A DNA stretch of 64,000 nucleotides from the NCBI GenBank assembly GCA_038250515.1, contig JBBSCG010000003.1:23675-87674 (forward strand), written 5' to 3'. The position numbers were made by a program, and so were the translations under genes. Under the pieces are notes generated by a model. That model saw only the letters and a list, made by a program, of their open reading frames with translations. It searched no databases and had not been told where the DNA came from. Each line of letters begins with the position of its first letter. Position 1 is the first letter of the stretch. Positions 10,918 to 48,902 of this stretch are shown piece after piece. The DNA is from Candidatus Limnocylindria bacterium (GTDB lineage: Bacteria; Chloroflexota; Limnocylindria; QHBO01).

Positions 10918-11032
10918 CGGTTCCCTACTGGCTTGCGAGCCATACGTGGCAGTCCCTTTTTCGACATTTCCATTTGGCCAGAACGATACAGGGTTGCGGA
11001 TGTGCCATTCGGCCCCCGCTCGCACGACCGAT

Positions 11033-11049
11033 GTCCCCTTGCGTGGGAC
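11033..11049. promoter_or_regulatory. Inverted repeat GTCCC-N7-GGGAC 20 nt upstream of the sensor kinase ATG; an AGTCCC half-site at 10951
   Basis: Seen directly. Half-sites resemble DevR/DosR-box halves (GGGAC/GTCCC). Confidence 0.35.
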
Positions 11050-11068
11050 GTGCAGGTAGGCTTGCTGC

Positions 11069-12571
11069 ATGCCTGAGCGCGTCGTTCTGCCCTTGTCGCT
11101 GCTGCTCGACGCCCTGGCGGCCTGGCAGCGCGGCCGGGGCGAGGCTCAACGCACACAGCTGACCGATGCGCTTGACGGCCTGGTGCGACCCCTCGGACTG
11201 CGCGGCGCCGCACTCAGCGTGGAGGCGGCACCTCTCGCCGGGGTTGACATCTCGTGCGGGACGCTGGCGGGCGAATCGGCGCGCGATGGGGTCGCGATCG
11301 GCGCAATCGAAACGGGGGTCAGCCTGGGCCACCTGCGCCTCGACCCGGCCGATGCCGACGGCGCACGGCTGGCGGCGCAGGCCATCGGTCTCGCGCTGGC
11401 GGGAGAGCATGGCAAGGCCCGAGCGGATCTGGCCGAGGCGAACCTGGCCGCCCTCGACATCGCCGTCCGTGGAGTGGCCGGCGTGCTCGCGCTCGACCGC
11501 GTGCTGCAGGAAATCGTCGATCGCGTCCGCGAGCTGGCCGGTGCCGAATACGCCGCGCTGGGCATCGTCGACGAGCAGGGCGTGATCGAGGAGTTCATCA
11601 CCAGCGGCATGAGCGCCAAGGTGCGAAAACGGATCGGCTCACTGCCGGTCGGCCGCGGACTGCTCGGACTGATCATCCGCGAGAACCGCGCGTTTCGGAT
11701 CCCGGACATCAACACGGATCCGCATCGCTATGGCTTTCCGCCCCAGCACCCGCCGATGCACTCGTTCCTCGGCGTGCCGATCACGGTCAAGGGCCGCTCC
11801 ATCGGCCGCCTGTACCTGACCAACAAGCGCGGAGCGCCGGAGTTCAGCGAGGACGACCAGCGGCTGGTCGAGCGCTTTGCGCTGCATGCCGGCATCGCCA
11901 TGGAGAACGCCCGGCTGCACGACAGGGTGCGACGGCTGGGCATCGTCAGCGAGCGGGAGCGCATCAGCCGCGATCTGCACGACTCGATCATCCAGCGCAT
12001 CTACGGCGTGACCCTTTCGCTCGAGGACGTCCCGGAGCTGGTCGACGAGGCGCCTGCCGAGGCGCGCGAACGGGTCGATCGCGCCATCGACGCACTGCAC
12101 GCCACGATCAATGAGATCCGCAGCTTCATCTTCGGGCTGCGGCCGGTCCTGCTCGAGGAGGGCGGGCTGCTCGTTGCGCTCGAGACGCTCGCCAACGAGG
12201 TGCGCCTGAACTCGACCGTCGAGATCGATGTGCACGGCACCGAACCCGAGCCGTTGCCGGTCGCGGTGAGCGCCGAGCTGCTCAGCATCGTGCGCGAGAC
12301 GCTGAGCAACGTCGCTCGCCACGCGGATGCGCACCACGCCAGCATCACAATCCGCCCGGACGCGGAAGCGCTCCACCTGGAGATTGCCGATGACGGCCGT
12401 GGCTTCGACCCCCACGCACCGCTGGTCGGCACGCACGACGGCCTGCGCAACGTCACCGATCGCACCGCGCGCCTGGGGGGGACGCTTCAGATCGAAAGCC
12501 GCGCGGGAGCCGGCACCCGTATCATCGTCGAGATCCCGCATGGCTCGGACCCAGGAGCGGATTCAGAATGA
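11069..12571 (+). CDS. GAF-domain sensor histidine kinase (NarL/DevS-type HisKA_3 + HATPase)
   Basis: GAF region followed by the RISRDLHDSIIQ H-box and an HATPase C-terminus (DDGRGFD, GLRN, GG). Confidence 0.85.
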   Translation: MPERVVLPLSLLLDALAAWQRGRGEAQRTQLTDALDGLVRPLGLRGAALSVEAAPLAGVDISCGTLAGESARDGVAIGAIETGVSLGHLRLDPADADGARLAAQAIGLALAGEHGKARADLAEANLAALDIAVRGVAGVLALDRVLQEIVDRVRELAGAEYAALGIVDEQGVIEEFITSGMSAKVRKRIGSLPVGRGLLGLIIRENRAFRIPDINTDPHRYGFPPQHPPMHSFLGVPITVKGRSIGRLYLTNKRGAPEFSEDDQRLVERFALHAGIAMENARLHDRVRRLGIVSERERISRDLHDSIIQRIYGVTLSLEDVPELVDEAPAEARERVDRAIDALHATINEIRSFIFGLRPVLLEEGGLLVALETLANEVRLNSTVEIDVHGTEPEPLPVAVSAELLSIVRETLSNVARHADAHHASITIRPDAEALHLEIADDGRGFDPHAPLVGTHDGLRNVTDRTARLGGTLQIESRAGAGTRIIVEIPHGSDPGADSE

Positions 12572-13242
12572 CGCAAGAGACGCCGGACGCGCACCATCCA
12601 CTGCGGCTGCTGGTGGTCGACGACCACGAGATCGTGCGCCAGGGCCTGGTCGCGCTCCTCGAGCGGCGCCCCGAGTTCAGCGTGGTGGCGCAGGCTGGCA
12701 CGGTGGCCGAGGCGATCGCCGCCGCGCGCCGGCACCAACCCGACCTGATCGTGATGGACGTGCGACTGCCCGACGGCTCCGGGATCGAAGCGTGCCGCGA
12801 GATCCGCGCCGAGATGCCGCAGACGCGGGTGCTGATGCTGACCAGCTACCCCGATGAGGAGGCGGTGCTGTCGGCGATCATCGCCGGGGCCAGCGGCTAT
12901 CTGCTGAAGCAGGTCCGTGGCCGTGACCTGGTCGCCGCGCTCGAGGCAGTCGGCGGTGGCGACTCACTTCTCGACCCGGCGGTCACCGAGAGGGTGCTCG
13001 AACGCGTTCGGCGCGCGGCGTCCGGCGACGACCACGACGAGCTTGCCGACCTTACCGCTCAGGAGCGCAAGATCCTGCTGCTGGTGGCGGAGGGCAAGAC
13101 CAACAAGGAGATCGCCGCCGAGGTGTTCCTCTCCGACAAGACGGTCAAGAACTACGTCAGCAGCATCCTGTCGAAGCTCGACCTCCAGCGACGCGCCCAG
13201 GCTGCAGCGTTCATGGCCAAGCACGGCCTCGATCGCAGCTAG
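12568..13242 (+). CDS. NarL/LuxR-family response regulator (DevR/DosR-like)
   Basis: Receiver domain (LLVVDDHEIVRQG ... DLIVMDVRLPDGSG) plus LuxR HTH (LTAQERKILLLVAEGKTNKEIA). ATGA overlap with the kinase gene. Confidence 0.9.
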   Translation: MTQETPDAHHPLRLLVVDDHEIVRQGLVALLERRPEFSVVAQAGTVAEAIAAARRHQPDLIVMDVRLPDGSGIEACREIRAEMPQTRVLMLTSYPDEEAVLSAIIAGASGYLLKQVRGRDLVAALEAVGGGDSLLDPAVTERVLERVRRAASGDDHDELADLTAQERKILLLVAEGKTNKEIAAEVFLSDKTVKNYVSSILSKLDLQRRAQAAAFMAKHGLDRS

Positions 13243-13897: not shown

Positions 13898-14131
13898 ATG
13901 AGAACAGGAGACGATCGAAACGCGGCCTTCTTCGGGATCGTGATGAATGCCAACTACCTGCTCGCCGGCACCGTCAGCAGCAATCCGATCCTGATCATCC
14001 TCGGCACGCTCGTCGTGCTTGCCTGGCGCAACGCCGGTTGGATCGGGCTCGACCGATGGCTTCTTCCGGCACTCGGCACTCCCTGGCAGCCCGGCGAGGT
14101 GTTCGACCGCTCGACCGATGCAACCTCATGA
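13898..14131 (+). CDS. Small predicted membrane protein
   Basis: Locally lower-GC stretch. Hydrophobic helix NPILIILGTLVVLAW. Weak. Confidence 0.3.
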   Translation: MRTGDDRNAAFFGIVMNANYLLAGTVSSNPILIILGTLVVLAWRNAGWIGLDRWLLPALGTPWQPGEVFDRSTDATS

Positions 14132-14142
14132 CGCAGGAGCCT

Positions 14143-14215
14143 GGACGCCTGCGGCAACGGCCATCGGGCCGATATCGCTGGCCCGATGGCTGATCGCCCC
14201 AAATGCTGCAGCGAA
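14143..14215. repeat. Intergenic repeat element (family A)
   Basis: See 16757..16845. About 35 nt upstream of the MFS start at 14251. Confidence 0.7.
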
Positions 14216-14250
14216 TAGGCCGAGTCCCCCTGAGCCGATAGACTCCCGCC

Positions 14251-15477
14251 GTGAAATCTCCACAGGGCTGGCGCTCGTTGCTCGTCGCCTACGGCATCAC
14301 CTCGACCATCGAGGCGCTGGGGGTCAGCCAGATCTTCGCCTTCCTGCCACTGCGGCTCGGTGAGGTCGGCCTTCCCCAGGCCGATATTCCCGCGTTCACG
14401 GGCATCTTCAGCTCTCTGATCTTCGTTTTCGGCATCCTGCTCGTGCCGTTCTGGGGCGTCTGGGCGGACAAGTACAGCCGCCGCGCGGTCATCGTGCGCA
14501 GCGCCGTCGTCGAGGCGGTCGTCTTCGTTGGGGTCGCGGCTGCCCAGGTGCCCTGGCAGCTCGCCGCCGTGCTGCTGCTCGTGGGCCTACAGCTGGGGAA
14601 TACGGGCGTGATGCTCGCCGCCCTGCGCGACGTGACGCCGCACCACCGGCTCGGGACAGCCACGGCCATCTTCGGGGCGATGGGGCCCATCGGTTTCGCG
14701 GTGGGACCGGTGATCGGCGGGGTCATGGTCGACGCATTGCATCTGCCGCTGACATCGGTCTTCTGGCTTTCAGCGGCGCTCTCGATGGCGATCGTGGGCG
14801 TCCTGCTGATCGGTACACGCGAGGTCCGGCCACAGGTGGTGCCGGTCGGACGAGTGACCGCCTTGGCGAAGCGCGCCCTGGTGGGCGTCCTGCGCGACGC
14901 CGCCATTCGCCGCCTCTTCATCGTCTTCGGCGTCTCGATGCTGGCCAACCAGATGTATCGACCCTTTCTCCCGCTGCTGGTCGCGGGAGTCCAGGGCAGC
15001 GGACCGGGCCTGGCCAGCGCCATCGGCCTGGTGACCGGGACCGCGGCGCTGGTCGGCGCGCTGGTGTCACCCATCTCGGGGCCGATCGGCGATCGAATCG
15101 GCTTCCGCCCGGTCCTCGCGGCGGCATTGATCGGCGGCGGCGTGGCGGTCGCGCTCATGCCGCTGGCGAGTGTCGTCCCGGTGCTCGCGCTATTCGCGGC
15201 GATCTACGCCGCGTTCCAGGCAGCGGTGCAGGCCATGATGTTCAGCCTGATCGCCACCGAGGCGGCACCCGAGGGTCGCTCGGCCACGCTCAACCTGGTG
15301 CTGCTGCCGCTCTACGTGGCCGGGATCATCGGTCCAAGCCTGGGCGCGATCATCGTTTCCACGACTGGCGTCGAAGGCGTCTTCCCGGCGGCCGGCTTCG
15401 TCTTCCTGCTCGGCGGGCTGGGGATCGCCGGCGTGCTCGGCCGTCTCCGTCGCGGCCCCACCGTCATTCTCGACTGA
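14251..15477 (+). CDS. MFS transporter
   Basis: 408 aa, 12 TM helices, MFS-like signature (PFWGVWADKYSRR). Confidence 0.85.
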   Translation: MKSPQGWRSLLVAYGITSTIEALGVSQIFAFLPLRLGEVGLPQADIPAFTGIFSSLIFVFGILLVPFWGVWADKYSRRAVIVRSAVVEAVVFVGVAAAQVPWQLAAVLLLVGLQLGNTGVMLAALRDVTPHHRLGTATAIFGAMGPIGFAVGPVIGGVMVDALHLPLTSVFWLSAALSMAIVGVLLIGTREVRPQVVPVGRVTALAKRALVGVLRDAAIRRLFIVFGVSMLANQMYRPFLPLLVAGVQGSGPGLASAIGLVTGTAALVGALVSPISGPIGDRIGFRPVLAAALIGGGVAVALMPLASVVPVLALFAAIYAAFQAAVQAMMFSLIATEAAPEGRSATLNLVLLPLYVAGIIGPSLGAIIVSTTGVEGVFPAAGFVFLLGGLGIAGVLGRLRRGPTVILD

Positions 15478-16645
15478 CGAGCGCCTCGTACAGAGCGACC
15501 GTCTGCTCAGCGATCGCGTCCCAGCCGAATTCTTCGACCGCCCGACGCCGGCCGGCCTTGCCCATGCGGGCGCGAAGCTCGGGCTGGGCCATGAGAGCGT
15601 TGATCGCATCGGCCAGGTCATGCTCGAACCGGTCTGTGTCAGGGGCGACCGGCACCAAGACGCCGGTCTCGCGGTCAGCCACCACCTCGGGAATACCGCC
15701 AACCGCGCTGGCGACCACCGCTGCCTGGCAGGCCATCGCCTCCAGGTTGATGATCCCGAACGGCTCATAGACCGATGGGCAGCAGAACAGCGCCGCATGA
15801 CTGTACAGCTGCCGCACCGCTTCGCGGCTGACCATCTCCGGAATCCAGACAACATTCGACCGATGCCGCCGCGCCTCGGCCACCCCGTCTTCCATCTCCC
15901 GCGCGATCTCCGGCGTGTCCGGCTGCCCGGCGCACAGCACCACGCCGATGCCCGGATCCAGGTGTTGGATGGCGCGCACCAGGTGCACGATCCCCTTCTG
16001 GCGAGTGATGCGACCGACGAACAGCACGTACGGCTGCGAGGGCTCGATGTTGTAGTGCTCGAGCGCGTCCCTCGTCGCCACGGGGTGATAGAACCCCGCG
16101 TCGATCCCGTTGTGAATGACGCTCACCTTTTCGGGCGCCACCTTGAACAGCCGCAGGATGTCGGCGCGCGTCTCGCTGCTGACCGCGATCACCGCGTCCG
16201 CCATCTCGAGCGCCGACCGCTCGATCCATGCCGAGACGTCGTAGCCGCCGCCCAGCTGCTCCCGCTTCCAGGGCCGCAGCGGCTCGAGCGAATGGACCGT
16301 TATGACCAACGGAATGCCGTACGCCAGCTTGGTCATGATGCCGGCGAAATGGGCGTACCAGGTGTGCGCGTGGACGACATCGGCCTCGACCGGCTGCGCC
16401 GCCATGCCGATGTCCCGGCTGAGCGCCGCGAACATCGGCTTCAATCGTTCATCGGTCGATGGCAGGTCGTGGGCGGCCGGAAAGCCGCGGATGCGCCAGC
16501 CGTCGGCCTGCTCGTCCTGCGCGCCGAACGTTCGCACCTCGACCTCGATCAGCCTGCGCAGTGCGCGCGTCAGCTCGCCGACGTGCACGCCGGCGCCGCC
16601 GTAGACGTTCGGCGGAAACTCGTTGGTCAGGATCAGCGCACGCAT
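15464..16645 (-). CDS. GT4 glycosyltransferase, GlgA/GlgM-like (glycogen or alpha-maltose-1-phosphate synthase family)
   Basis: N-terminus MRALILTNEFPPNVYGGAGVHV and a GT4 C-terminus EPFGIINLEAMA. Start refined to the ATG at complement 16643..16645. Confidence 0.8.
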   Translation of the reverse strand: MRALILTNEFPPNVYGGAGVHVGELTRALRRLIEVEVRTFGAQDEQADGWRIRGFPAAHDLPSTDERLKPMFAALSRDIGMAAQPVEADVVHAHTWYAHFAGIMTKLAYGIPLVITVHSLEPLRPWKREQLGGGYDVSAWIERSALEMADAVIAVSSETRADILRLFKVAPEKVSVIHNGIDAGFYHPVATRDALEHYNIEPSQPYVLFVGRITRQKGIVHLVRAIQHLDPGIGVVLCAGQPDTPEIAREMEDGVAEARRHRSNVVWIPEMVSREAVRQLYSHAALFCCPSVYEPFGIINLEAMACQAAVVASAVGGIPEVVADRETGVLVPVAPDTDRFEHDLADAINALMAQPELRARMGKAGRRRAVEEFGWDAIAEQTVALYEALVSRE

Positions 16646-16756
16646 GAGCACGTAGCCTACCGTCGGCGTCGGGCCGACTTGCAGCATTTGGTCGTAACGG
16701 CCAGCAGGGACGCAAATCGGCCCAATCGAGCCGGCTCGTTGGCCGACAGCAATCAG

Positions 16757-16845
16757 CCGGTGCAAAAACGGCCATCGGGGGCCGAATCTCGATGTCCCGG
16801 TGGCAGATACGGCCAAATGCTGCAAGGCCAACCATTTGGCCCGAC
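16757..16845. repeat. Intergenic repeat element (family A), contains GTCCCGGTGGCAGAT and CCAAATGCTGCA
   Basis: Related to 14143..14215 (AACGGCCATCGGG, GCCGA(T/A)ATC, CCAAATGCTGCAG blocks). About 20 nt upstream of the copA start. Confidence 0.7.
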
Positions 16846-16865
16846 GCGGTATACTCCCCGGTAGT

Positions 16866-19079
16866 ATGAGCACCACCAATCAGCCCGAGCTCAGCCTGCC
16901 GGTGACCGGCATGACCTGCGCGTCGTGCGTGAACCGGATCGAGCGCTTCCTGAACAAGGCCGATGGCGTGACGACCGCGACCGTCAACCTCGCCACCGAG
17001 CGCGCCACGGTGCAGTTCGATCCGACAAAGATCGATCGAACGGGCATCGTGCAGACCATCCAGGCGGCCGGCTACGACGTCCGGGCCGACGCCGGCACGA
17101 GCGAGGCCGCGACCGAGCACGACGATGAGCAGCGCAGCCTGTTGGTCCAGGCGCTGGCCGCGGCCGGCATCGGCCTGGCGATGATGGTCGTCATGCTCTG
17201 GCCGGGCGGCGTGCCGTGGTCGATGGAACGCGTCAACGTCTGGTTCCTCGTGCCGGCCACCATCGTCCAGTTCATCTTCGGTCGGCGGTTCCTGGTCGCG
17301 GCCGCGCGCGGCCTCCCCCATCTCGACCTCAACATGAACACGCTGGTCGCCATGGGCACGCTGGCGGCGTACGGCTACTCGCTGTTCGTGACGCTCTTTC
17401 CGGAGGCGGTCAGGTCTGCCGGGCTCGGCATGGAGACCTACTTCGACAGCGCTGCGCTCATCGTCGGCCTGATCCTCTTCGGCCGATGGCTCGAGGCACG
17501 CGCCAAGGGACAGGCCGCGGGCGCGGTCAAGGCACTGCTGGAGCTTCAACCGCGGACGGCTCGGATGATTCGCAACGGGGTCGAGATGGACCTCCCGGTC
17601 GACCAGGTGCGCGTCGACGACCTACTACGCGTGCGGCCGGGCGACAAGGTTCCGGTCGACGGCATCCTGACCGATGGCGCCTCCGCCCTCGACGAGTCGA
17701 TGCTCACCGGCGAATCACTCCCCGTCGAAAAGAGCATGGGCGATCGGGTCATCGGCGCGACGCTCAACACCAGCGGATCCTTCGTGATGCGTGCCGAGAA
17801 GGTCGGGGCGGAGACCGCGCTGTCGCAGATCGTCGCGATGGTCGAGCAGGCCCAGGGGTCGAAGGCGCCCATCCAGCGCGTCGCCGATCGGGTCACCGGC
17901 TGGTTCGTGCCCGCCGTCGTGGGAGTGGCGCTGCTCACCTTCGCGCTATGGATGCTGCTCGGGCCGGAGCCGCGCCTGCCGCTCGCCCTGTCGAGTGCGA
18001 TCACGGTGCTGATCATCGCCTGCCCGTGCGCGATGGGCCTCGCCACGCCGACGGCAATCATGGTCGGCACCGGCAAGGGCGCCGAGCACGGCATCCTGGT
18101 GCGCAACGGTGCCGCGCTCGAGCAGGCACAGCGCGTCACGACGGTCGTGCTCGACAAGACCGGCACGCTGACGCGCGGCGTGCTCAGTGTCATCAACGTC
18201 ATTCCAGAGAGTATCGACGAGCGGGAGCTGCTGAGCCTTGCGGCCGCCGCCGAGCGCGGCAGCGAGCATCCCATCGCCGAAGCCATCGTCCGACATGCCG
18301 AGGCGGCTGGCCTGGCACTGCCAGACGCATCGACCTTCGAGGCGATCGCCGGACGCGGCGTGCGCGCCACAGTCGACGGTCGGAAGGTCCTGATCGGAAC
18401 CGAGAAACTGCTCGACGAAAGCGGCGTCGACGTCGACGCACCGCCAACCGACCCTGCCCACTCTCCGATCTTCGTTGCGCTCGACGGCCGGCTGGCGGGC
18501 GTCATCACCGTGGCGGACACGATCCGTCCCGAGGCCGCCGAGGCGGTCCGCCGTCTCCGCGATCGCGGCCTCGATGTGTGGCTGATCAGCGGCGATCGCG
18601 CGGCAACGGCGCATGAGATCGGCGCCCGGGCCGGGATCGGAGCAGACAGAATTCTCGCCGAGGTGCTGCCCGGCCAGAAGTCGGCCAAGATCGCGGAGCT
18701 CCAGGCGAACGGCGCAGTGGTGGCCATGGTCGGTGACGGCATCAATGACGCGCCGGCGCTGGCGCAGGCCGATCTCGGCATCGCCATCGGAACGGGCGCC
18801 GACGTAGCGCTCGAGGCATCTGACATCACGATCCTGGGCGAAGACCTGCGCAGCGTGCCGAACAGCATCGGTCTATCGCGAGCCACCATGCGAACCATCC
18901 GCCAGAACCTGGGCTGGGCGTTCGGCTACAACGTGGTGCTGATCCCGGTGGCCGCGGGCGCGCTGTTCCCCATCTTCGCGCTGCTGCTGAATCCGGCGCT
19001 GGCGGCCGCTGCCATGGCGCTGTCGAGCGTCAGCGTGGTGAGCAATTCGCTGCGGTTGCGCGCCTTCAATCCCGCCTGA
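16866..19079 (+). CDS. copA: Copper-translocating P1B-type ATPase
   Basis: N-terminal HMA domain ([12 protein letters not shown]), CPC motif in TM6 ([12 protein letters not shown]), [17 protein letters not shown]. Start refined to the ATG for MSTTNQPEL. Confidence 0.9.
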
Positions 19080-27922: not shown

Positions 27923-27998
27923 GCGGGAGTAGCTCAGTTGGTAGAGCGTCAGCCTTCCAAGCTGAATGTCGCGAGTTCGAACCTCGTCTCCCGCTCCA
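27923..27998 (+). tRNA. tRNA-Gly (anticodon TCC)
   Basis: Cloverleaf by eye: acceptor GCGGGAG/CTCCCGC, D-arm GCTCAGTTGGTAGAGC, anticodon stem TCAGC/GCTGA with loop CTTCCAA, T-arm GCGAGTTCGAACCTCGT, encoded CCA. Confidence 0.85.
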
Positions 27999-28091: not shown

Positions 28092-30614
28092 ATGATGACC
28101 GTCGTGCGCTCTGATCTCCCCAGCGGCACCGTCACCTTCCTGTTCACCGACATCGAGGGTTCGACCAGGCTGTTGCACGAGATCGAGGCTGAGGCCTATG
28201 CCGATGCCCTGGCCGAGCACCGCCGCATCGTGCGCGAGGCGTTCCGGGCCGAGGGCGGGGTAGAGGTCGACACCCAGGGGGATGCCTTCTTCGTGGCCTT
28301 TCCAACCGCGCCAGGCGCTCTGCGGGCAGCGGCTGCGGCGAACGAAGGACTGGCGCCGGGTCCGATCCGCGTGCGGATGGCCATCCACACCGGCACGCCG
28401 TACCTGACCGAGGAGGGCTACGTCGGGGTCGACGTCCACCGCGGTGCGCGCATCGCGGCGTCCGGCCACGGCGGCCAGGTGCTCGTCTCAGCCTCCACGG
28501 CTGCCCTCCTTGGCACGGATGGGCTGCGTAACCTGGGCGAGCACCGCCTCAAGGACCTTTCGGCACCCGAGCGCATTTACCAGCTCGGCGACGACGACTT
28601 TCCGGCACTCAAGTCGCTGTATCGGACCAACCTGCCGGTACCGGCGACCCCGTTTCTGGGTCGCGAGCGGGAGCTGGCCGAAGTGGTCAAGCTCCTGGAG
28701 CACGACGACCTACATCTGCTCACCCTGACCGGGCCGGGCGGCACCGGCAAGACGCGGCTCGCCCTGCAGGCCGCGGCGGAGGCTTCCGAGTCCTTCCCCG
28801 ACGGCATCTACTGGGTGCCACTCGCGCCCCTGCGCGACCCCGAACTCGTGCTCTCATCGGTTGCGCGGACGCTTGAAGTCAATGAAGAGCCCGATCGCCC
28901 CATCCAGGACACGCTCAGCGCGCACCTGGCGGGCAAGCGCCTGTTGCTCGTCCTCGACAACCTCGAGCACCTGTTGCCGCAGGCGACCGCACCGATCGCC
29001 GCACTCCGTGACGCAAACGGGTCTTCCCTCCTGGTGACGAGCCGCGAGCGGCTGCGGATCCGCGGCGAGCAAACCTGGCCGGTGCCGCCGCTCGCCGACA
29101 AGGACGGGGCGGCGCTGTTCGTGGCTCGTGCGCAAGCGGTCGACCCGTCCTTCACCCACACCCCCGCAGTTGACGAACTGTGCGCTCGACTCGACGAGCT
29201 TCCGCTGGCGATCGAACTCGCCGCCGCCCGCACCGCGGTCTTCTCGAGCGCGCAGTTGCTCGAGCGACTGTCCGGGCGCCTTGACCTGCTCAAAGGTGAG
29301 CGCGACGCCGATCCGCGCCAGCAGACGCTGCGCGCCACCATCGAATGGAGTCACGCCCTGCTCGCACCGCCGGAGGCACAACTCTTCCGCGGGCTCGCGG
29401 TCTTTGCCGGCGGCTGCACGTATGACGCCGCCGAGCAGGTCTCGGGCGCGGACCCCGACACCCTGCAATCGCTCCTCGACAAAAGCCTTCTGCGCAAACG
29501 GGATGCCGCCTACGGGCCTCGTTACTGGATGCTCGAAACGATCCGCGAGTTCGCCGCCGAGCGGCTCGAGGAGTCGGGCGAGGCCGAGCCGTCACAGCGG
29601 CGGCACGCCGAGCACTTCATGGCCCTGGCCCAGGACGCGGAGCCGAATACACGCTCGTACTCCGCCGAGTGGATCGAGCGGCTAGAGATGGAGCATGACA
29701 ATCTGCGCGCCGCGCTCGACTACCTCGCGGCCTCAGGCGAAAACGAACTGGTCTTGCGATTGGCCGGAGCCCTGTCGGATTTCTGGCACTACGGGGGGCA
29801 CGTCGCCGAGGGCTGGCGTCGTCTCGAGAGCGCACTCGAACCAGAGGAGCGCCCGACGGCGGCCCGTGCCAGGGCCCTCACTGGGGCTGCCGACATGGCG
29901 TATGGGAGCGGAGATGCTGCAACAGCCAGGTTGATGGCCGAGAAGGCGCTCGCGCTCCATCGCCAGCTTGGGGACACGTGGGGCGCCGCATATGCGCTGA
30001 ACCTGCTCGGCGTGGCCTTCATCGAGGAAGGAGACTTCGAGCGGGCGCAGCAGCTCGTCGAAGAGGCAGTAGATCTCTTCCGCCGGCTCGGCGATGACCA
30101 GTTCACGCTCGCGGCAACTCGCACTCTGGCATTCGCTTACTACAGCCGCGGCGACCTCGACCGCGCCCGCACGCTCCACGAAGCGAACCTTCGCCGGGCG
30201 AGAGCGGGGGGCATGAAGGAGACCGAGGCTGGGACGTTGGGCTCCCTGGCGATCATTGCCGTCGACCAGGGCCGCGTCGATGACGCGCTCGCGTTGGTGA
30301 AGGAAAACGTATTGGTCGCGCGCGACCTTGGCTCCGCGCACGGAATCGCGCAGAGTCTCTGTCGCGCCGCCGATGTTCTCGCCCGGTTCCTCGGGAATGC
30401 GCACGCGGCCGCCCAACTCCTCTCCTGCTTCGAGGGCCTGCGACAGCAGATCGGCGTCAGCGAGGCCTGGGTCTCGAGGATGAACGAGCAGACGCTCGCG
30501 GCCGTCCACGCGCAACTCGACGCCGCCGCCTTTGCCGACGCATGGGAGCAAGGCCGGAAGCTGACGGTCGACGAGGCCGTCGCGCTCGCCCTCGGCTCGG
30601 TTGAACCGGCATGA
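28092..30614 (+). CDS. Class III adenylate/guanylate cyclase fused to AAA/NB-ARC-like ATPase and TPR repeats
   Basis: FLFTDIEGST ... TQGDAFF cyclase core, Walker A GPGGTGKT, C-terminal TPR-like repeats. Start refined to the ATG for MMTVVRSD. The longer ORF start would overlap the tRNA. Confidence 0.85.
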   Translation: MMTVVRSDLPSGTVTFLFTDIEGSTRLLHEIEAEAYADALAEHRRIVREAFRAEGGVEVDTQGDAFFVAFPTAPGALRAAAAANEGLAPGPIRVRMAIHTGTPYLTEEGYVGVDVHRGARIAASGHGGQVLVSASTAALLGTDGLRNLGEHRLKDLSAPERIYQLGDDDFPALKSLYRTNLPVPATPFLGRERELAEVVKLLEHDDLHLLTLTGPGGTGKTRLALQAAAEASESFPDGIYWVPLAPLRDPELVLSSVARTLEVNEEPDRPIQDTLSAHLAGKRLLLVLDNLEHLLPQATAPIAALRDANGSSLLVTSRERLRIRGEQTWPVPPLADKDGAALFVARAQAVDPSFTHTPAVDELCARLDELPLAIELAAARTAVFSSAQLLERLSGRLDLLKGERDADPRQQTLRATIEWSHALLAPPEAQLFRGLAVFAGGCTYDAAEQVSGADPDTLQSLLDKSLLRKRDAAYGPRYWMLETIREFAAERLEESGEAEPSQRRHAEHFMALAQDAEPNTRSYSAEWIERLEMEHDNLRAALDYLAASGENELVLRLAGALSDFWHYGGHVAEGWRRLESALEPEERPTAARARALTGAADMAYGSGDAATARLMAEKALALHRQLGDTWGAAYALNLLGVAFIEEGDFERAQQLVEEAVDLFRRLGDDQFTLAATRTLAFAYYSRGDLDRARTLHEANLRRARAGGMKETEAGTLGSLAIIAVDQGRVDDALALVKENVLVARDLGSAHGIAQSLCRAADVLARFLGNAHAAAQLLSCFEGLRQQIGVSEAWVSRMNEQTLAAVHAQLDAAAFADAWEQGRKLTVDEAVALALGSVEPA

Positions 30615-31024
30615 CGGAGTCACGTTCTGACCTCCCCTCCGGCACGGTCACCTTCCTGTTCACCGACATCGAGGGATCGACCAAGCTGTTGCACCAGCTC
30701 GGAGCCGAGGCGTATGCCGATGCCCTGGCCGAGACCCGGCGCGCTGCGCGCAGCGGCTGCGGTGACCGACGGGCTGGCCCATGGTCCGATCCGGGTGCGG
30801 ATGGCCATCCATACCGGCACGCCGCACCTGGGCGAGGAGGGCTACGTCGGCAGCGACGTGCACCGCGGCGCCCGCATCGCGGCGTCCGGCCACGGCGTGC
30901 TATCGATGAGCGACGGCGGCTCGTGGACCGGTGTGCTACCGAGGCGGACGCTGCCCGGCTGTGGGCCGATGGGCAGGCGATGAGCGTAGACGAGGCCGTC
31001 GCCTACGCGCTCATTGTCAGCTGA
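30611..31024 (+). pseudogene. Internally deleted, frameshifted duplicate of the upstream adenylate cyclase gene
   Basis: Starts (ATGA overlap) with MTESRSDLPSGTVTFLFTDIEGSTKLL, identical in pattern to the intact gene. The cyclase continues in a second frame (IRVRMAIHTGTPHLGEEGYVGSDVHRGARIAASGHG). It ends with a tail like the intact C-terminus (SVDEAVAYAL vs TVDEAVALAL). Confidence 0.7.
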
Positions 31025-31230: not shown

Positions 31231-31280
31231 CCGGCCTTCCAAGGTCGATGTCGCGGGTTCGAACCCCGTCTCCCGCTCCA
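31231..31280 (+). other. 3' remnant of a tRNA-Gly(TCC)-like gene (anticodon loop through CCA; no 5' half)
   Basis: CCTTCCAAG ... GTCGCGGGTTCGAACCCCGTCTCCCGCTCCA parallels positions 27956..27998 of the intact tRNA. No D-arm or acceptor 5' strand upstream. Confidence 0.6.
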
Positions 31281-31304
31281 AATTTCCCACCGCGCGACAA
31301 CGCG

Positions 31305-34566: not shown

Positions 34567-34648
34567 CCGTTCCGTCCCACGGCATCCGACGTTGCAAGCC
34601 CCCGACCGCCCCATGCCGCGACCGAGCAGGCTGGACGCCAAGTACGCC

Positions 34649-34750
34649 TAATGGGCCGATGCGGAACCGGTATCTCAGCGCACCGCCGCCAAAGCGGCGT
34701 AATGGGCCGATGCGGAACCGGTATTTCAGCGCACCGCCGCGAGGCCGCCC
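34649..34750. repeat. Tandem direct repeat, 2 copies of about 51 bp
   Basis: TAATGGGCCGATGCGGAACCGGTAT(C/T)TCAGCGCACCGCCGC repeated at 34649 and 34700 with one mismatch. Intergenic. Confidence 0.8.
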
Positions 34751-38754: not shown

Positions 38755-39246
38755 GCGGTGAAGTCTACGGCGGGGTGCATAGCGTGGCGTTCAGCGAGCT
38801 TTGGCCATCGCCTGCATCCAGGCCTCGGTATCGATCTCGAGCCACCGGTCATCACAAATGCCGGTTTCGATCGGCGCGCGTTCGACATGATCATCCGCTT
38901 CAGTGCCGTGCGCGCGGGGGTTGAGGGTTACACGCGATTTCGAGACTGCCAGGCACAGTTGCGCTCATGCTTCCTGAAGCAGCGCGATGCCGGCGTCGAA
39001 CGCCTGTTCATCGTGGTAAAGGGAACGCGCCACAATCGCCTCGCTGTCGCGGCCGTTGGTGACCTCATCTTGGCTGCTCTCCCGCTCGGCACGCGCCAGG
39101 TGCTTACGGCACTGGCCGCCGGCCGCGATCCAGGTGCCAACGGGCTGGTTTTTCTGTAGTCGCTCGTCGCCACCGCTGGCGCCACGATCGCCTTTGTCAC
39201 CCGCTGGAGGTACCAACCAAGAAAAGGCGGTTATCGGGGCTGCCGG

Positions 39247-39348
39247 CCTGCAAATCGGCCGCACGCTGACCGAAACCGCCAACCTGAGACCGGTTTTGGC
39301 GGCTACTTGTTCGTTAGCTCCGGAGAACACCTCCACCCGGTGGCAAAT
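39247..39348. repeat. About 100-nt intergenic repeat element (family B) ending in CTCCACCCGGTGGCAAAT
   Basis: See 46977..47050. Upstream of the MFS gene at 39463. Confidence 0.75.
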
Positions 39349-39462
39349 TGACCGCTCATCCCTTCAGTCCCCGATCCACCCGGCGGAACGACATCGAACG
39401 AAGACTGACCGATGCCGCCGTCTCGCCTGCAGCCGGGCCGCCCCATCGCGTAACGTGCGGCC

Positions 39463-40692
39463 GTGGCCATTCCCCCCGCCGCCGACGCGCTCGTTCGACC
39501 GATTCGGACGTTGTGGCTGCTCGCCGGTGCGCATGCCGTCAACCATGCCCTCGCAATCCTGATGCCGCTGGTCTACCTGCAGGTCATTCGCGAAATGCAC
39601 GTCGATGGGGCGGCGATCGCCATCCTGACCGCGGTGGGCAGCCTCAGCTCGGGCCTGGCGCAGTTGGCGTACAGCGGGCTGACCCGCGTCTTCTCGCGTC
39701 GCTCGATCCTGGTTCTCGGCGGCCTGCTGCTCGGTGGCGGGATGGCCGTGCAGGGGCTCGTCAGCAACTTCACCGCATTCTCGGCGGCCAATATCGCCTC
39801 GAAGGTCGGTGGCTCGCCGCAACACCCGGTCGGCAACGCATTGCTGGCGGAGCAGTTTCCGCCGCACCGACGCGGATTCGCCATCAGTGCCCATATCTCC
39901 GGCGGCAACGTGGGAACGCTGGCGGTGCCGCTGATCGGGACGTGGCTGATCGCCGGCATCGGCTGGCGCAACACGGTGATCCTCTTCGGCGTGCCGGGGA
40001 TCCTGATCGCCATCGCCATCGCGGCGCTCGTCCGCGAGTCGGGATCGGACCGCGAAGCAGCCCGTGCACACGGCAACCTGGCGGATGGCTTCCGGCGGGT
40101 GTTCCATGACCGCGACCTGCTGCTGCTCTACTTCGCCTCGACCGTCGCGGCCGGCGGTCGCGGCCTGGGTGTCATCACCCTGTTCGTGCCGCTCTACCTG
40201 TCCGAGGTCCTGCACCTCGACACCGCGACCATCGGCTGGATGTACACCGTCCTGCTGCTCGGCAGCGTGCCTGCGCCGCTCGCCGCGGGGTGGCTGTCGG
40301 ACCGCATCGGTCGACGACCGGTCATCCTCGTGGCCTACCTGCTGGCCGCGGCCGGCATGGCGCTGTTCGTCGCATCCGGCCAAAACCAGGCCGGCGTGTG
40401 GGCGGCGATCGCAGTCATGAGCGTGTTCGCCTACGTCGAGAGCCCGCAGTTGCAGGCGATCCTGGCCGATATTTCGCCGCCGGCCATCCGCGACACCGCC
40501 TTCTCGACCTACTTCACGCTTGCCTTCGGCGTCGGCTCCCTGTGGACGGCGGTCTTCGGCGTCATCCTCGGTGCGGCCGGCGATACGGCGGGCCTGCCGA
40601 TCGTCTTTTGGATCATGGCCGCCACCTTCGTTGCCGGAGGTTTGGCCGTCTTACCGATACGGACCACGCCTCACGACGGACACCCGGCGTGA
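39463..40692 (+). CDS. MFS transporter
   Basis: 409 aa, 12 TM helices, GTG start. Confidence 0.8.
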   Translation: MAIPPAADALVRPIRTLWLLAGAHAVNHALAILMPLVYLQVIREMHVDGAAIAILTAVGSLSSGLAQLAYSGLTRVFSRRSILVLGGLLLGGGMAVQGLVSNFTAFSAANIASKVGGSPQHPVGNALLAEQFPPHRRGFAISAHISGGNVGTLAVPLIGTWLIAGIGWRNTVILFGVPGILIAIAIAALVRESGSDREAARAHGNLADGFRRVFHDRDLLLLYFASTVAAGGRGLGVITLFVPLYLSEVLHLDTATIGWMYTVLLLGSVPAPLAAGWLSDRIGRRPVILVAYLLAAAGMALFVASGQNQAGVWAAIAVMSVFAYVESPQLQAILADISPPAIRDTAFSTYFTLAFGVGSLWTAVFGVILGAAGDTAGLPIVFWIMAATFVAGGLAVLPIRTTPHDGHPA

Positions 40693-42447: not shown

Positions 42448-42846
42448 CTACACAGGCTCCCGCAGCGGAAGGCCATACGCCTTCATGGACCGATCGAACG
42501 TCAGGAGTGGCGACGCGCCTGCTTCACGGCACGCACCGACGATCAGCGCGTCCGGGATCGGGCGACCGGGTGCGCCGCGCGCCTGCACCAGCGCGTCGAC
42601 CGCCGTTTCGTTGCGCATGCCCAGCAGGACGATGTTCTCGCGCAGCAGCAGCTCGATCAGGCTGTGAATGATGTCGGCCTGGTCGACACCGTACTGGGTT
42701 CGCAGCACGTGTGCGCACTCAACGAGTCCCACCAGCGACAGTCCGATGCGCTGCGTGCCATTGATCACGCGCGCCGCCCGAGCGGCGGCTGCTGACGGAG
42801 TCCCGACGAGGTAACGGACGATCAGCGACGTGTCCGCACCGATCAC
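42448..42846 (-). CDS. vapC: PIN-domain toxin VapC
   Basis: PIN acidic residues (D5 ..., D near the C-terminus), 132 aa. Overlaps the upstream antitoxin. Confidence 0.8.
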   Translation of the reverse strand: MIGADTSLIVRYLVGTPSAAAARAARVINGTQRIGLSLVGLVECAHVLRTQYGVDQADIIHSLIELLLRENIVLLGMRNETAVDALVQARGAPGRPIPDALIVGACREAGASPLLTFDRSMKAYGLPLREPV

Positions 42847-43766: not shown

Positions 43767-45740
43767 GTGACGACGGCAGCATCGGTCCTGGATGGCCTCA
43801 ATGAGGAACAGCGCGAGGCTGCCATGGCGACAAGCGGCCCGGTTGCCATCCTCGCAGGCGCGGGCACGGGCAAGACGCGAGTGATCAGCCACCGCGTCGC
43901 GTATGCGGTCGCGACCCGCGTCGTGGATCCCAAGCGCATCCTCGTCGTGACGTTCACCGAGAAGGCGGCGACGGAGATGAAGCATCGGCTGAGCCGGCTG
44001 GGACTGCCAGGGGTGGCGGCTTCGACCTTTCACTCGGCTGCCAAGCGACAGCTCGAGTTCTACTGGCCGCGTCTGCATGGCCAGCCGCTGCCGAATGTGC
44101 TGGATTCAAAGCTGGGCATTGTCATTCCACTCGCTCGCCAACTGCCCGGCGGATACAAGTTCACGCCAGCCAAAGACCTGGCCGATGAGATTGAATGGGC
44201 CAAAGCCCGTCGCATCGGTCCTGGGGAGTACGCGGCCGAGGCCGCGCGAGCGCATCGGGAGTCGCCCATTCCTGCCGACGTGTTTCAAACGGTGTATCGC
44301 CGCTACGAACAGGGCAAGCAGCGGGCGGGTGTCATCGATTTCGAGGACATGCTCAGCCTGGCGGTTGACCTGTACGAGACCGATGCGGATGCCGCCGCCC
44401 TCGTGCGGCAGCGCTACGACTGGTTCTCGGTCGACGAGTACCAGGACACCAACCGGCTGCAGGAGGATCTGCTTCGCCTGTGGCTGGGCGATCGACGCGA
44501 TCTCTGCGTCGTCGGCGATGAAAACCAGACGATCTACAGCTTCACCGGCGCGACCGCGGACTACCTGACGACCTTCAAGGACCGATATCCCGGCTGCCGC
44601 GTCATCAATCTCACGCAGAACTACCGCAGCACGCCGCAGATCCTGGCGCTGGCCAACCGGCTGATCGCGAGCTCGGGCCAACTGAGAGCGACGCTCGACG
44701 ACGGCAGCGAGCCAAGCCTGGTCGCCTACGCGAACGGGGCTCAGGAGGAATCGGCGATTGTCGCTGCGATTCGTCAACACGCGAGCAGGCAAATGCAGCT
44801 GACCGAGATCGCGATCCTGGTGCGCACCAACGCGCAGCTTGTGCCGTTCGAGTCGGCGCTGACTCGGGCGGGCATTCCGTTCACCGTTCGCGGCCAGCGC
44901 TTCTTCGCTCGGGCAGAGGTTCGGGCGGCACGGCAGGCGCTGAGCAGCGGTCGTGCAACCGGCACATTGGAAGAGGTGCTCGCAGCTCGATGGCGGACGA
45001 TCCTGGGCTTCGATGAGCAGGAGCCATCGGGTCCAGGTGCCGAGGCACGTGACCGACACGCGTCGCTGCTGACGCTGCTGGGCATCGCGCGGGAGCTCGT
45101 CGCACGCGAGCCGGACGCCACGGTCACCGACTACCTCACCGAGCTGCAGCGTCGCGATGGCGATGAGGCTGCAGCCGGCGGTGCGGGCGTGGTGCTCTCC
45201 ACGTACCACCGGGCGAAGGGACTCGAATGGGATGTCGTCTTCCTGCCGATGCTGGAGGATGGGACGCTGCCCAGTCGCCAGTCACTGAGCGACGACGCCG
45301 CGGTGCGGGAAGAGCGACGGCTGCTGTACGTCGGCATCACGCGGGCACGCAAACAGTTGGCGGTGTCCTGGGCAGCGCAGCGCCTGAACCCCAAGGGCGG
45401 CGTCGCACGGGCGAAGCCCTCACGCTTCATTGCGGAGCTGCATCCAGGGCGCGTGATGCGCCCGACGGCTGCAACAGCGGTTCCACCCGCCGGCGCGGCC
45501 CCGGCCAAGGGCGCCGCGGCCGACCTGTACGAGGCGCTCCGGTCGTGGCGCATCAAGCGTGCGCGAACCGACGGCGTGCCTGCGTACGTCGTCGCCGACA
45601 ACAAGACGCTCACCGCAGTGGCGACGGAGAGACCGATGAACGCGGCCGAGCTGCTCGCCGTTCCCGGCATGGGACCGCACCGCGTCGCGACCTATGGAGC
45701 GGAGATGCTGCAGATCATCGCTTCGGCGTCTGAGAAATAG
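43767..45740 (+). CDS. UvrD/PcrA-family SF1 DNA helicase with C-terminal HRDC-like domain (UvrD2-like)
   Basis: Walker A GAGTGKTRV, DEYQDTN motif, VTFTEKAA motif, C-terminal HRDC-like tail (LYEALRSWR ... VVADNKTL). GTG start assumed. Confidence 0.85.
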   Translation: MTTAASVLDGLNEEQREAAMATSGPVAILAGAGTGKTRVISHRVAYAVATRVVDPKRILVVTFTEKAATEMKHRLSRLGLPGVAASTFHSAAKRQLEFYWPRLHGQPLPNVLDSKLGIVIPLARQLPGGYKFTPAKDLADEIEWAKARRIGPGEYAAEAARAHRESPIPADVFQTVYRRYEQGKQRAGVIDFEDMLSLAVDLYETDADAAALVRQRYDWFSVDEYQDTNRLQEDLLRLWLGDRRDLCVVGDENQTIYSFTGATADYLTTFKDRYPGCRVINLTQNYRSTPQILALANRLIASSGQLRATLDDGSEPSLVAYANGAQEESAIVAAIRQHASRQMQLTEIAILVRTNAQLVPFESALTRAGIPFTVRGQRFFARAEVRAARQALSSGRATGTLEEVLAARWRTILGFDEQEPSGPGAEARDRHASLLTLLGIARELVAREPDATVTDYLTELQRRDGDEAAAGGAGVVLSTYHRAKGLEWDVVFLPMLEDGTLPSRQSLSDDAAVREERRLLYVGITRARKQLAVSWAAQRLNPKGGVARAKPSRFIAELHPGRVMRPTAATAVPPAGAAPAKGAAADLYEALRSWRIKRARTDGVPAYVVADNKTLTAVATERPMNAAELLAVPGMGPHRVATYGAEMLQIIASASEK

Positions 45741-46521: not shown

Positions 46522-46526
46522 CGGCG

Positions 46527-46832: not shown

Positions 46833-46895
46833 GACGCACAATTGTAGCACATCAACGCCGCCGAACCAGCCGCGCATGGCCAGAAGTGGCCGATG

Positions 46896-46910
46896 TGCCA
46901 CCGGGTGGAG
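46896..46910. repeat. Palindrome-like 15-mer TGCCACCGGGTGGAG, reverse complement of the motif at 47030 and 39331
   Basis: Exact reverse complement of CTCCACCCGGTGGCA. 64 nt upstream of the antitoxin start at 46832. Confidence 0.8.
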
Positions 46911-46976
46911 ATAACGGCGAAGATGAGGCTCTCGCAGGCCTGATTCAGCCCGCTTCGTCGCCGCTTCTGCCACCTG

Positions 46977-47050
46977 CTGACCGAAACCGCCAACTCGGGG
47001 CCGATTCGCACGGCAACTTGTCCGTTAGCTCCACCCGGTGGCAGATCGGC
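46977..47050. repeat. About 75-nt intergenic repeat element (family B) ending in CTCCACCCGGTGGCAGAT
   Basis: Shares the blocks CTGACCGAAACCGCCAAC, ACTTGT(T/C)CGTTAGCTCC and CACCCGGTGGCA with 39247..39348. Confidence 0.75.
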
Positions 47051-47158
47051 GCGATCACAGCCGCGCTGTCGCCTCTCTGGGGTCGCCTCAGCCGCCTGAG
47101 GACCGCGCCAGCTCGGGATGGGTCGAGGTGATCTCCCCGGCGAGGTCAATGACCGCCG

Positions 47159-48259: not shown

Positions 48260-48485
48260 GTCGCCCGCACTGTGCGAGACTGACGGGGGTCTGCGCCAAC
48301 CCGGCCCATGGCGGGCACCTCTTTGCTGTCGCAGGGATTCTCCCACGATCCGCATTGCTCCTCCACTCGTTGAACAGGGCGTTGCCAAGGATCAGGTTGG
48401 CGCCTCAATGCTGCCACCACCTGTTGGTACACGCTTCGAACCTCCGGCGCCGTGTCCGGCACTCGGTGCCTTGGCGCCTTGACTT

Positions 48486-48512: not shown

Positions 48513-48532
48513 AGCCACCGAACGGCCCCCAT

Positions 48533-48868: not shown

Positions 48869-48902
48869 CGCTTGAGGCCGCGGAGCAGCTGGGAGTCGCC
48901 CG

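Follow-up and report, generated by a model that had tools for sequence, protein, structure and literature searches.

Imperfect palindromic repeats upstream of promoters in Candidatus Limnocylindria: possible decaying MITE/ERIC-like elements

Introduction

Short repeated sequences that stand between genes may be regulatory DNA, RNA genes, mobile elements or by-products of local mutation. Which of these are the four intergenic elements found in a 64-kb stretch of DNA (hereafter the window) from an uncultured soil bacterium, Candidatus Limnocylindria (Chloroflexota)? The elements form a family A (A1 and A2) and a family B (B1 and B2). A first-pass annotation read them as conserved 5' leaders, small-RNA genes or miniature repeat elements; the last of these fits the analysis below, and the first two do not. 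Because the closest relatives lack them, we tentatively regard the elements as young repeats of one lineage, palindromic and MITE/ERIC-like, that are decaying in the spacers upstream of promoters.

Two families of non-coding repeats

The sequence and coordinates of the four elements are as first described, and their likeness within each family is beyond chance. In-window blastn aligned A1 (14156-14210) with A2 (16767-16824) at 79% over 58 nt (E 1.7e-7) and B1 (39255-39321) with B2 (46966-47032) at 78% over 67 nt (E 2.5e-10). The local alignment score was 31 for A1-A2 (10.6 +/- 1.7 in dinucleotide shuffles) and 37.5 for B1-B2 (11.2 +/- 1.6), and none of 500 shuffles equalled either score. The named blocks AACGGCCATCGGG, CCAAATGCTGCA, CTGACCGAAACCGCCAAC, CGTTAGCTCC and CACCCGGTGGCA are all present, while the block GCCGA(T/A)ATC is inexact in A2, which has GCCGAATC. 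The distances given to the transporter genes, 35 nt for the MFS gene and 20 nt for copA, are also correct. Reading frames across the blocks shared by B1 and B2 disagree and no ORF is conserved, a frame inconsistency that speaks against a protein-coding role for the B elements. The A and B repeats are real and non-coding.

The two families had also been credited with one core. Only A2 (16799) and B2 (47037) have this core, GGTGGCAGAT, without mismatch; B1 differs from it at one position and A1 at two. A 13-mer common to A and B, CCCGGTGGCAGAT, has P ~0.0085 by shuffling, and the A2-B2 alignment score was equalled in one of 500 shuffles; the remaining A-B pairs gave no significant alignment (500 shuffles). 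Support for a common core is marginal (P ~0.01), and A and B are possibly two families distantly related to each other.

Palindromic architecture

At three of the four loci the repeat is part of an imperfect palindrome, the inverted partner of which was overlooked in the first-pass annotation. The repeat features are as follows.

14143..14215 (+): A1, solo family A copy, found by blastn and nhmmer
14158..14192 (+): hairpin in A1, with a 14-pair stem (12 Watson-Crick and 2 G-U pairs), a 7-nt loop and no U-tract
16646..16763 (-): A2', inverted family A copy, towards the GT4 glycosyltransferase gene; arm core 16678-16708
16657..16864: GT4-copA divergent spacer, the whole of which folds as one quasi-palindrome of ~200 nt
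16754..16867 (+): A2, family A copy, towards copA; arm core 16796-16826, including CCCGGTGGCAGAT
39179..39227 (-): B1', degenerate left arm of the B1 element
39246..39359 (+): B1, interior and right arm, carrying the palindrome CCACCCGGTGG
46873..46957 (-): B2', left half of the B2 element; arm 46889-46925
46957..47069 (+): B2, right half of the element; arm 47014-47050

The basic unit, seen in A2/A2', B1'/B1 and B2'/B2, is an imperfect palindrome of 150-200 nt in which inverted arms of 31-37 nt enclose an interior of 85-88 nt. The A2/A2' arms (16678-16708 against 16796-16826) match at 84% over 31 nt and the B2/B2' arms (46889-46925 against 47014-47050) at 86% over 37 nt; no other local inverted repeat in the whole window is as strong as these two. 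B1 and B2 can be aligned from end to end, both arms included, each being ~165-185 nt long with inverted arms of 31-37 nt. A1 is a solo half-unit that has its own hairpin and lacks a partner arm. The fold z-scores of the elements are -7.0, -4.5, -2.7 and -3.2. The first belongs to the GT4-copA spacer (-114.1 kcal/mol against -82.6 +/- 4.5 for shuffles), the second to the B2 element (46885-47055, -85.9 kcal/mol) and the last to the RNA fold of 14132-14250 around A1 (-54.4 kcal/mol).

Two of the inverted partners need comment. The nhmmer E value of A2' (4.4e-20) was obtained with A2' itself in the model, and its independent support is the inverted-repeat pair. B1' scores E 0.017 with a model that excludes it and E 4.5e-5 with a seven-arm model that includes it, and the alignment agrees. 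The elements differ in their neighbours. Upstream of A1 is the stop codon of a truncated doxX fragment (14131), and downstream of it is the MFS core promoter. B1' overlaps the 5' end of a minus-strand ORF whose translation has an in-frame stop and which obtained no identity from Pfam or NCBIfam, and B1 ends ~100 nt upstream of a second MFS gene. The B2' arm lies 57-93 nt upstream of a phd-vapC toxin-antitoxin operon, and B2, which includes a weak third arm (46964-46997, minus strand), lies ~100 nt downstream of the murB stop codon. A 4.9-kb Logan contig (SRR19962013) is 100% identical to window positions 44528-49404.

Adjacent promoters and RNA readings

Several promoter features accompany the repeats.

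14239..14253 (+): MFS core promoter and start, TAGACT-N6-GTG; outside the repeat and conserved in relatives
16654..16659 (-): GT4 -10 box TAGGCT, 8 nt before the ATG at 16645
16851..16867 (+): 17-bp palindrome ATACTCCCCGGTAGTAT, overlapping the copA -10 box (TATACT, 16850-16855) and start codon (16866)
39451-39465: second MFS gene promoter, TAACGT-N6-GTG

A TAnnnT-type -10 box just before the start codon is the signature of leaderless genes (PMC3160421). The TAnnnT boxes of MFS, copA (TATACT-N10-ATG) and GT4 end 6-10 nt before their start codons and are conserved in relatives; the GT4 box reads TAGCCT there, and the corresponding position in one relative (L008) is TACGCT. Among 27 operon-first genes of the relatives, 11 have a box at the leaderless offset, compared with one box at all other offsets. 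The genes flanking the repeats are probably leaderless, with transcription starts predicted from these boxes. The repeats lie upstream of the predicted starts and hence are not the 5' leaders of these genes. The ATACTCCCCGGTAGTAT palindrome at copA is conserved in relatives, lies outside the repeat and is probably an operator. The phd-vapC operon has its own promoter (TACAAT-N8-ATG), overlapped by the palindrome ACAATTGT. A toxin-antitoxin operator was rejected as an identity for the B arm, which lies 57-93 nt further upstream than this palindrome over the phd -10 box.

Conserved 5' leaders, riboswitch-like elements or small-RNA genes are very improbable as an explanation. Single strands of the elements fold strongly and the elements adjoin transporter genes, as such RNAs might, but any DNA palindrome would give such a fold, and placement upstream of the -10 boxes would put the elements outside the mRNAs (PMC3160421). 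No match to Rfam was obtained in the elements at the gathering threshold or at E up to 10. Simple scans of three regions returned no sigma-70-type promoter, and simple terminator scans returned nothing placed to define a small-RNA gene; within the elements they gave a single terminator-like match, a weak minus-strand stem of 5 pairs in A2. Covariance between B1 and B2 had been proposed as a check, and it yielded one compensatory pair among 29 predicted pairs, which is not informative. Nor are the elements conserved in relatives (see below). The main value of the analysis at present is this negative one: the elements are not conserved riboswitch-like leaders or small-RNA genes.

Other identities were also rejected. 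For a sigma-54 promoter the spacing is wrong, and a tRNA-derived att site was rejected on reading the sequence. The R''/R' boxes (RYYYAAC / GTTRRRY) of integron attC sites lie at the outer ends of an imperfect palindrome, whereas the GATAAC/GTTAGC motifs of the B arms lie at their inner ends and misfit GTTRRRY; no integrase gene was seen.

Comparison with relatives

The elements had been called conserved, a reading that by its own terms would fall if both further copies in the genome and conservation in relatives were lacking. It fails on conservation, none of which is seen at the orthologous sites. At all four, relatives whose flanking genes have 87-93% DNA identity hold unrelated sequence or no spacer, and only the core promoters are conserved. 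In L013, with flanking DNA 87-93% identical, nothing aligns to 14132-14227 or 16646-16845; homology halts at 14131 and restarts at 14228, so that segment 14132-14227 is unique to this genome. The B1 site is just a 93-nt PAC2-MFS2 spacer in L012 and a DUF411 gene in L011. In L016, murB has 93% DNA identity, homology ends 10 nt past its stop codon, and both phd-vapC and B2 are absent. Presence or absence thus differs between close relatives at orthologous sites, as expected of a MITE, while the relatives' sites are replaced by other sequence and offer no clean empty site. This wholesale turnover of promoter-upstream spacers and the strong evidence for leaderless promoters in the lineage are two by-products more solid than the repeats themselves.

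Searches for further copies and mobility machinery

Further copies of A or B were sought in the window and in ~108 kb from seven relatives' loci, and none was found. Profiles of A, of B and of the seven arms gave no significant nhmmer match in the relatives' loci, and all-vs-all blastn of the window and the seven loci revealed no other dispersed non-coding repeat. Wider scans gave matches that were rejected. The pattern GGCCATCGGG-N18-48-CCAAATGCTGCA had five single matches in unrelated taxa of a genome collection, about the chance level by our own estimate. The B-arm pattern GTTANCTCCACCCGGTGGCA had two metagenome matches with unrelated flanks, one of them inside what we take to be a phage-terminase-like coding region. 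Three pattern scans of viral collections gave one chance match in an apparent coding region and were otherwise empty, and plasmid records searched by blastn with the A2 and B2 elements gave no match.

Among the ~46 window ORFs tested, none had a Pfam match to a transposase or integrase, and no Y1-transposase gene was seen. No direct repeat recognisable as a target-site duplication was seen at the junctions read. Sharp element ends were likewise not definable; past the arms the inverted similarity tapers off gradually. GCCGATSTGCCACCGGGTGGAG and CTTGCAGCATTTGG are sequences with which the ends of an insertion sequence or a RAYT gene could be matched.

Origin of the repeats

It is unlikely that the blocks are binding sites of one DNA-binding protein, forming a species-specific cis-regulatory module that co-regulates the adjacent leaderless promoters. 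The candidate binder would be a LuxR-type response regulator (12568-13242), or another activator or nucleoid protein, acting on MFS, GT4 and copA through family A and on the palindrome CCACC(N)GGTGG in family B. CCAAATGCTGCA occurs three times in the window against 0.2 expected, each copy facing a gene start with its centre ~38-46 nt before the predicted transcription start, and MFS, GT4 and copA belong to a copper-related cluster that includes a multicopper oxidase, a two-component system, copA and a YHS-domain gene. The exact palindrome CCACCNGGTGG is confined, within the window, to three B arms, and palindromic operators are normal at divergent promoters of this lineage. The orthologous promoters of five relatives, however, lack these blocks and have no module in common, although the regulators and core promoters are conserved in the same five. 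The similarity spans 60-110 nt including spacers and indels, far beyond the needs of a binding site, and the distance from block to -10 box varies (~20, 25 and 29 nt). The B arms also differ in distance to the nearest starts, ~-65 for phd and ~-118 for the second MFS gene, and one faces the murB 3' end.

Neutral local mutation is a somewhat unlikely source. Spacer duplications, inverted or direct, by template switching or ectopic repair between neighbouring intergenic sites would leave quasi-palindromes that have neither mobility nor function. Copies of the same family are close together (2.5 kb apart in A and 7.7 kb in B), two loci are known per family, and the sequences scanned hold no transposase (window ORFs), target-site duplication or copy elsewhere. 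Spacers of the lineage turn over wholesale between close relatives, and the window holds other small duplications, namely a 51-nt tandem repeat (34636-34740) and a duplicated uvrD 3' end (45700-45803). Proximity says little, since any two copies in a 64-kb window are necessarily close. What tells against this origin is the two-armed architecture of ~165 nt at two separate loci (B1 and B2), with a similar one in A2, which implies that a whole palindromic unit was copied and was not formed in place. The core and the weak colinear similarity common to A and B also count against it.

Decaying copies of a non-autonomous MITE/ERIC-like element would account for a copied palindromic unit, and this is the reading we tentatively prefer. 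Such an element may have been copied into, or have replaced, the fast-turning-over spacer DNA that directly precedes core promoters; its mobilisation would probably have depended on a transposase acting in trans from another part of the genome. As a side effect, its ends would replace the -35/upstream region of adjacent promoters, placing CCAAATGCTGCA ahead of the predicted starts. Where read from upstream genes, the long hairpins could be terminators or stabilisers, that of A1 after the doxX remnant and that of B2 after murB. Signs of rearrangement stand beside the elements (the doxX 3' fragment, the ORF with an in-frame stop and the toxin-antitoxin cassette), and murB near B2 is probably a transferred gene. 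The elements are non-coding and 150-200 nt long, under the ~500 bp of a MITE, with terminal inverted repeats in A2 and B2 and degenerate ones in B1; the window ORFs tested include neither a cognate insertion sequence nor a transposase whose ends would match. Against a MITE/ERIC-like origin stand the number of loci, two per family in 64 kb, and the orientation of family A, whose three ends each point at a gene start from a similar distance; a regulatory module would account for this orientation too. The copies are just ~78% identical, so any mobility is old.

A broader proposal, which we consider improbable, is that A and B form one superfamily of mobile "promoter-upstream cassettes" in Limnocylindria, palindromic elements that land preferentially between or directly upstream of leaderless -10 boxes. 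If so, the -35/upstream region on one side or on both would be exchanged for element DNA, and the genes nearby (here copA, the glycosyltransferase gene, the two MFS transporters and the toxin-antitoxin operon) would come under rewired regulation. Such cassettes would also explain wholesale spacer replacement between genomes with 87-93% identical flanking genes. If the repeats turned out to be dispersed as a family, no small palindromic repeats would have been described before them in Limnocylindria, a class still uncultured. They would then serve as strain markers, account for breaks in assemblies and represent repeat DNA at the upstream half of leaderless promoters, able to alter the expression of metal-efflux and transporter genes.

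Comparison with known systems

Palindromic operators resemble A and B in their inverted-repeat symmetry centred between divergent genes. The operators of this lineage, such as ATGTCCC-N7-GGGACGT at the multicopper oxidase/kinase promoter and ATACTCCCCGGTAGTAT at copA, are 17-21 bp long, overlap the core promoter and are conserved, whereas A and B have 10 times that length, stand further upstream and lack conservation.

REP units, which are linked to RAYT transposases, and their BIME and REPIN assemblies share with A and B the form of short intergenic repeats, often inverted pairs that form a hairpin, and arm-linker mosaics. Each REP unit is itself a palindrome of 20-40 bp, bears the tag GTAG or CGTC at one of its ends and is present in high copy number (PMC3733652). 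Unlike REP units, the arms of A and B are not lone hairpins (except A1), and the B arms carry no GTAG/CGTC end tag.

The ERIC/IRU elements are non-coding intergenic imperfect palindromes of ~100-200 nt that encode no transposase, vary in presence at a site between related genomes and have size variants that come from internal insertions. A and B are likewise non-coding intergenic palindromes whose presence varies at the same site in relatives. From one genus to another ERIC copies remain highly similar; a genome has tens to hundreds of them, usually in regions that are transcribed. A and B, unlike them, have two known loci per family, are ~78% alike, belong to one lineage and lie mostly upstream of predicted starts.

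Typical marks of MITEs are defined ends, duplication of the target site (TA for Correia), a large number of copies and a cognate insertion sequence; for A and B none of these was found in the sequences scanned. The Correia/NEMIS elements and other bacterial MITEs are ~100-200 nt long, with terminal inverted repeats of ~26-37 nt, and lie near gene starts. Their ends can supply parts of promoters, and RNA transcribed from them forms long hairpins. A and B resemble Correia/NEMIS in size, in the length of their inverted repeats and in their closeness to gene starts.

Repeat families and their genomic setting

The window carries two families of non-coding repeats that have a palindromic unit architecture, lie upstream of conserved core promoters and are absent at the orthologous sites of relatives. 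The elements and the features that border them are as follows.

13922-14131, doxX fragment
14143-14215, family A copy A1
14251-15477, first MFS gene
16646-16763, minus strand, A2', inverted partner of A2
16754-16867, family A copy A2
38792-39210, minus strand, ORF of about 140 codons
39179-39227, inverted partner of B1, degenerate
39246-39359, family B copy B1
46957-47069, family B copy B2
47159-48388, minus strand, murB

The G+C content of the window is 66-71%. Homologues sharing 78-90% identity with the first MFS protein carry the labels Candidatus Limnocylindria or Chloroflexota, which places the window in an uncultured Limnocylindria MAG. Genes neighbouring the repeats were assigned by Pfam. 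Family A is set in a copper-related cluster comprising a multicopper oxidase, a GAF-histidine kinase with a LuxR-type regulator, an unknown minus-strand gene, the doxX fragment, the MFS gene, a GT4 glycosyltransferase (minus strand), copA and a YHS-domain gene. B1 has a PAC2-family gene (minus strand) on one side and a second MFS gene on the other, and B2 is bordered by the murB 3' end and a phd-vapC toxin-antitoxin operon (both minus strand). With three PIN-domain (VapC-like) genes within 64 kb, all on the minus strand (42448-42846, 46138-46521 and 52242-52781), the region is rich in toxin-antitoxin cassettes. Only two close homologues of murB were found (90% and 81%), the next best being from Microbacteriaceae (Actinomycetota; 56-68%), which suggests that this gene was acquired horizontally.

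The sequence blocks quoted in the first-pass annotation are present in the window. A1 and A2 are 79% identical over 58 nt, and B1 and B2 78% over 67 nt. Local alignment scores are 31 for the A pair and 37.5 for the B pair; dinucleotide-shuffled sequences score about 11 +/- 1.6, and not one in 500 gets as high as either. The window contains three occurrences of CCAAATGCTGCA, where 0.2 would be expected. The core proposed to be common to both families is less well supported: GGTGGCAGAT is exact in A2 and B2 but nowhere else among the copies. Exact words common to A and B loci reach at most 13 nt, in CCCGGTGGCAGAT (P about 0.0085). Because only the A2-B2 alignment is marginally significant among A-B pairs (1/500 shuffles reach its score), a distant relationship between the families is plausible, not established. 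Directly after a DUF6766 gene, a 51-nt unit is present twice in tandem (34636-34740, copies 88-95% identical) and has GGGCCGAT, as do the family A copies; profile searches did not link this unit to A or B.

Palindromic anatomy

Inverted partners, overlooked in the first-pass annotation, were found for A2, B1 and B2. The two strongest local inverted repeats of the whole window are 16678-16708/16796-16826 and 46889-46925/47014-47050. A2' is directed at the GT4 gene, and since the A2/A2' similarity extends outward nearly to both -10 boxes, the whole 220-nt GT4-copA spacer folds as a single quasi-palindrome (-114 kcal/mol, z -7.0). B1 and B2 can be aligned along their full length as units of about 165-185 nt, in which two arms flank an 85-88-nt interior; folding gives z-scores of -2.7 for B1 and -4.5 for B2, and a weak third arm is present inside B2. 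Exact copies of the palindrome CCACCNGGTGG are confined to those three B arms that are better preserved. A1 stands alone as a half-unit and contains a hairpin of 14 pairs.

Orthologous sites in relatives

Synteny with relatives is conserved, whereas the A and B elements are not. Among the relatives found, L013 is closest at the A loci. At the A1 site it matches the window at 93% as far as the doxX stop (14131), and homology returns at 14228; at the A2 site the match is 87% as far as the GT4 start (16645), and homology returns at 16846. The sequence between these blocks is unrelated, 266 nt long in L013 at the A1 site (window 14132-14227, L013 93-358) and 161 nt at the A2 site (window 16646-16845, L013 5413-5573). 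Between these genomes, whose flanking DNA is 87-93% identical, the spacers upstream of promoters are wholly different, with breakpoints at the end of the gene and some 10-25 nt ahead of the -10 box. L013 has neither a quasi-palindrome nor a module common to its own promoters; an apparent direct repeat of about 30 nt in its spacer (about GATTCTTTGCA.CCGG..GTCGG) was seen by eye only. The A sites of L006, L007 and L008 differ in the same way. The doxX fragment is the 3' third only (residues 128-190 of the L007 protein, 97% identical), and the absence of the 5' two-thirds and promoter places a deletion junction directly upstream of A1.

At the B1 site, L012 has a PAC2-MFS spacer of only 93 nt and L011 a DUF411 gene; a segment of about 650 nt comprising B1 and ORF 38792-39210 is absent from both. 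This ORF, which contains one in-frame TGA and has no match in Pfam or NCBIfam, is possibly a cassette gene in decay. For B2 the comparison is with L016, whose murB is 93% identical in DNA; homology stops 10 nt past the stop codon, and downstream there is neither B2 nor the phd-vapC module that follows murB in the window.

Promoters and operators

Every flanking gene has a TAnnnT box that ends 6-10 nt before the start codon and is kept in relatives.

First MFS gene, TAGACT-N6-GTG
copA, TATACT-N10-ATG
GT4 gene, TAGGCT-N8-ATG
Second MFS gene, TAACGT-N6-GTG
PAC2 gene, TAGACT-N7-ATG
phd, TACAAT-N8-ATG

In published work, a box at such an offset marks leaderless genes (PMC3160421), and we infer that the genes flanking the repeats are leaderless. 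Among operon-first genes of L006-L008, 11/27 have a TAnn[C/A]T box at this offset (one box at all other offsets together) and 3/27 a Shine-Dalgarno-like motif; leaderless expression seems common in Limnocylindria. A 17-bp palindrome, ATACTCCCCGGTAGTAT (16851-16867), overlaps the copA -10 box and start codon, and its conservation extends to L007, L008 and L013. We take it as the probable operator of a metal-responsive repressor on a leaderless promoter; it may resemble CsoR-type operators. The divergent multicopper oxidase/GAF-kinase promoter (11031-11071) has the palindrome ATGTCCC-N7-GGGACGT followed by TAGGCT-N6-ATG, and since comparable palindromes occupy this position in L008 and L007, the neighbouring two-component system probably has its operator here.

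Origin of the elements

The repeats lie upstream of the TAnnnT boxes and hence outside the predicted mRNAs. Provided that transcription starts where the boxes predict, this excludes the 5' leaders first proposed, and a leader or small-RNA role is altogether improbable. A species-specific regulator-binding module would fit the three CCAAATGCTGCA blocks at similar distance and orientation, but these blocks are not conserved in relatives although the regulators themselves are, and the repeat similarity is long for such a module, which we regard as rather unlikely.

Searching about 108 kb from relatives with profiles of A, of B and of seven arms gave nothing significant, and these profiles revealed no additional copies within the window. 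Exact-pattern scans of genome, metagenome and viral collections returned isolated matches with unrelated flanks only, and plasmid records and Rfam had no match to the elements. The low known copy number and the lack of any transposase in the window agree with neutral local duplication, yet a complete two-armed unit recurs at separate loci, and we consider such an origin rather unlikely too. Our tentative preference, held at somewhat less than even confidence, is that the elements are young additions to fast-turnover spacer DNA and resemble decaying MITE/ERIC-like elements. They could change the upstream half of neighbouring promoters and, where transcribed, could serve as hairpin terminators.

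Other repeats occur in the window. The last ~40 nt of a uvrD/pcrA-like helicase gene, including GATGCTGCAG...GGCGTCTGAGAAA, are repeated about 60 nt further downstream (45700-45803). The 3' 49 nt of tRNA-Gly(TCC) (27923-27998) recur 3.3 kb downstream (31234-31282, 90% identity), with a STAND NTPase gene (cyclase, NB-ARC and TPR domains) between the copies; about 280 nt of its 5' part are repeated at 87% directly before the second tRNA copy (28107-28473 vs 30623-30897). The arrangement is suggestive of a partial duplication or of an integrated segment bounded by att-type repeats.

Comparison with known repeat classes

REP and REPIN sequences are units of 20-40 bp that pair with themselves and carry a GTAG or CGTC tag (PMC3733652). 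The A and B elements do not fit this description, and an integron attC identity was likewise rejected. They are probably a new addition to the small palindromic intergenic repeats, a known class of which no member is known to have been described in this lineage; literature searches turned up nothing specific. At the junctions read no target duplication could be recognised, each family has two known loci in the 64 kb, and no cognate transposase was detected among the window ORFs examined with Pfam. The elements are most like ERIC/IRU elements or Correia-type MITEs, a likeness rather than a demonstrated membership, and resemble MITEs in being short, in carrying inverted arms and in varying between relatives at orthologous sites.
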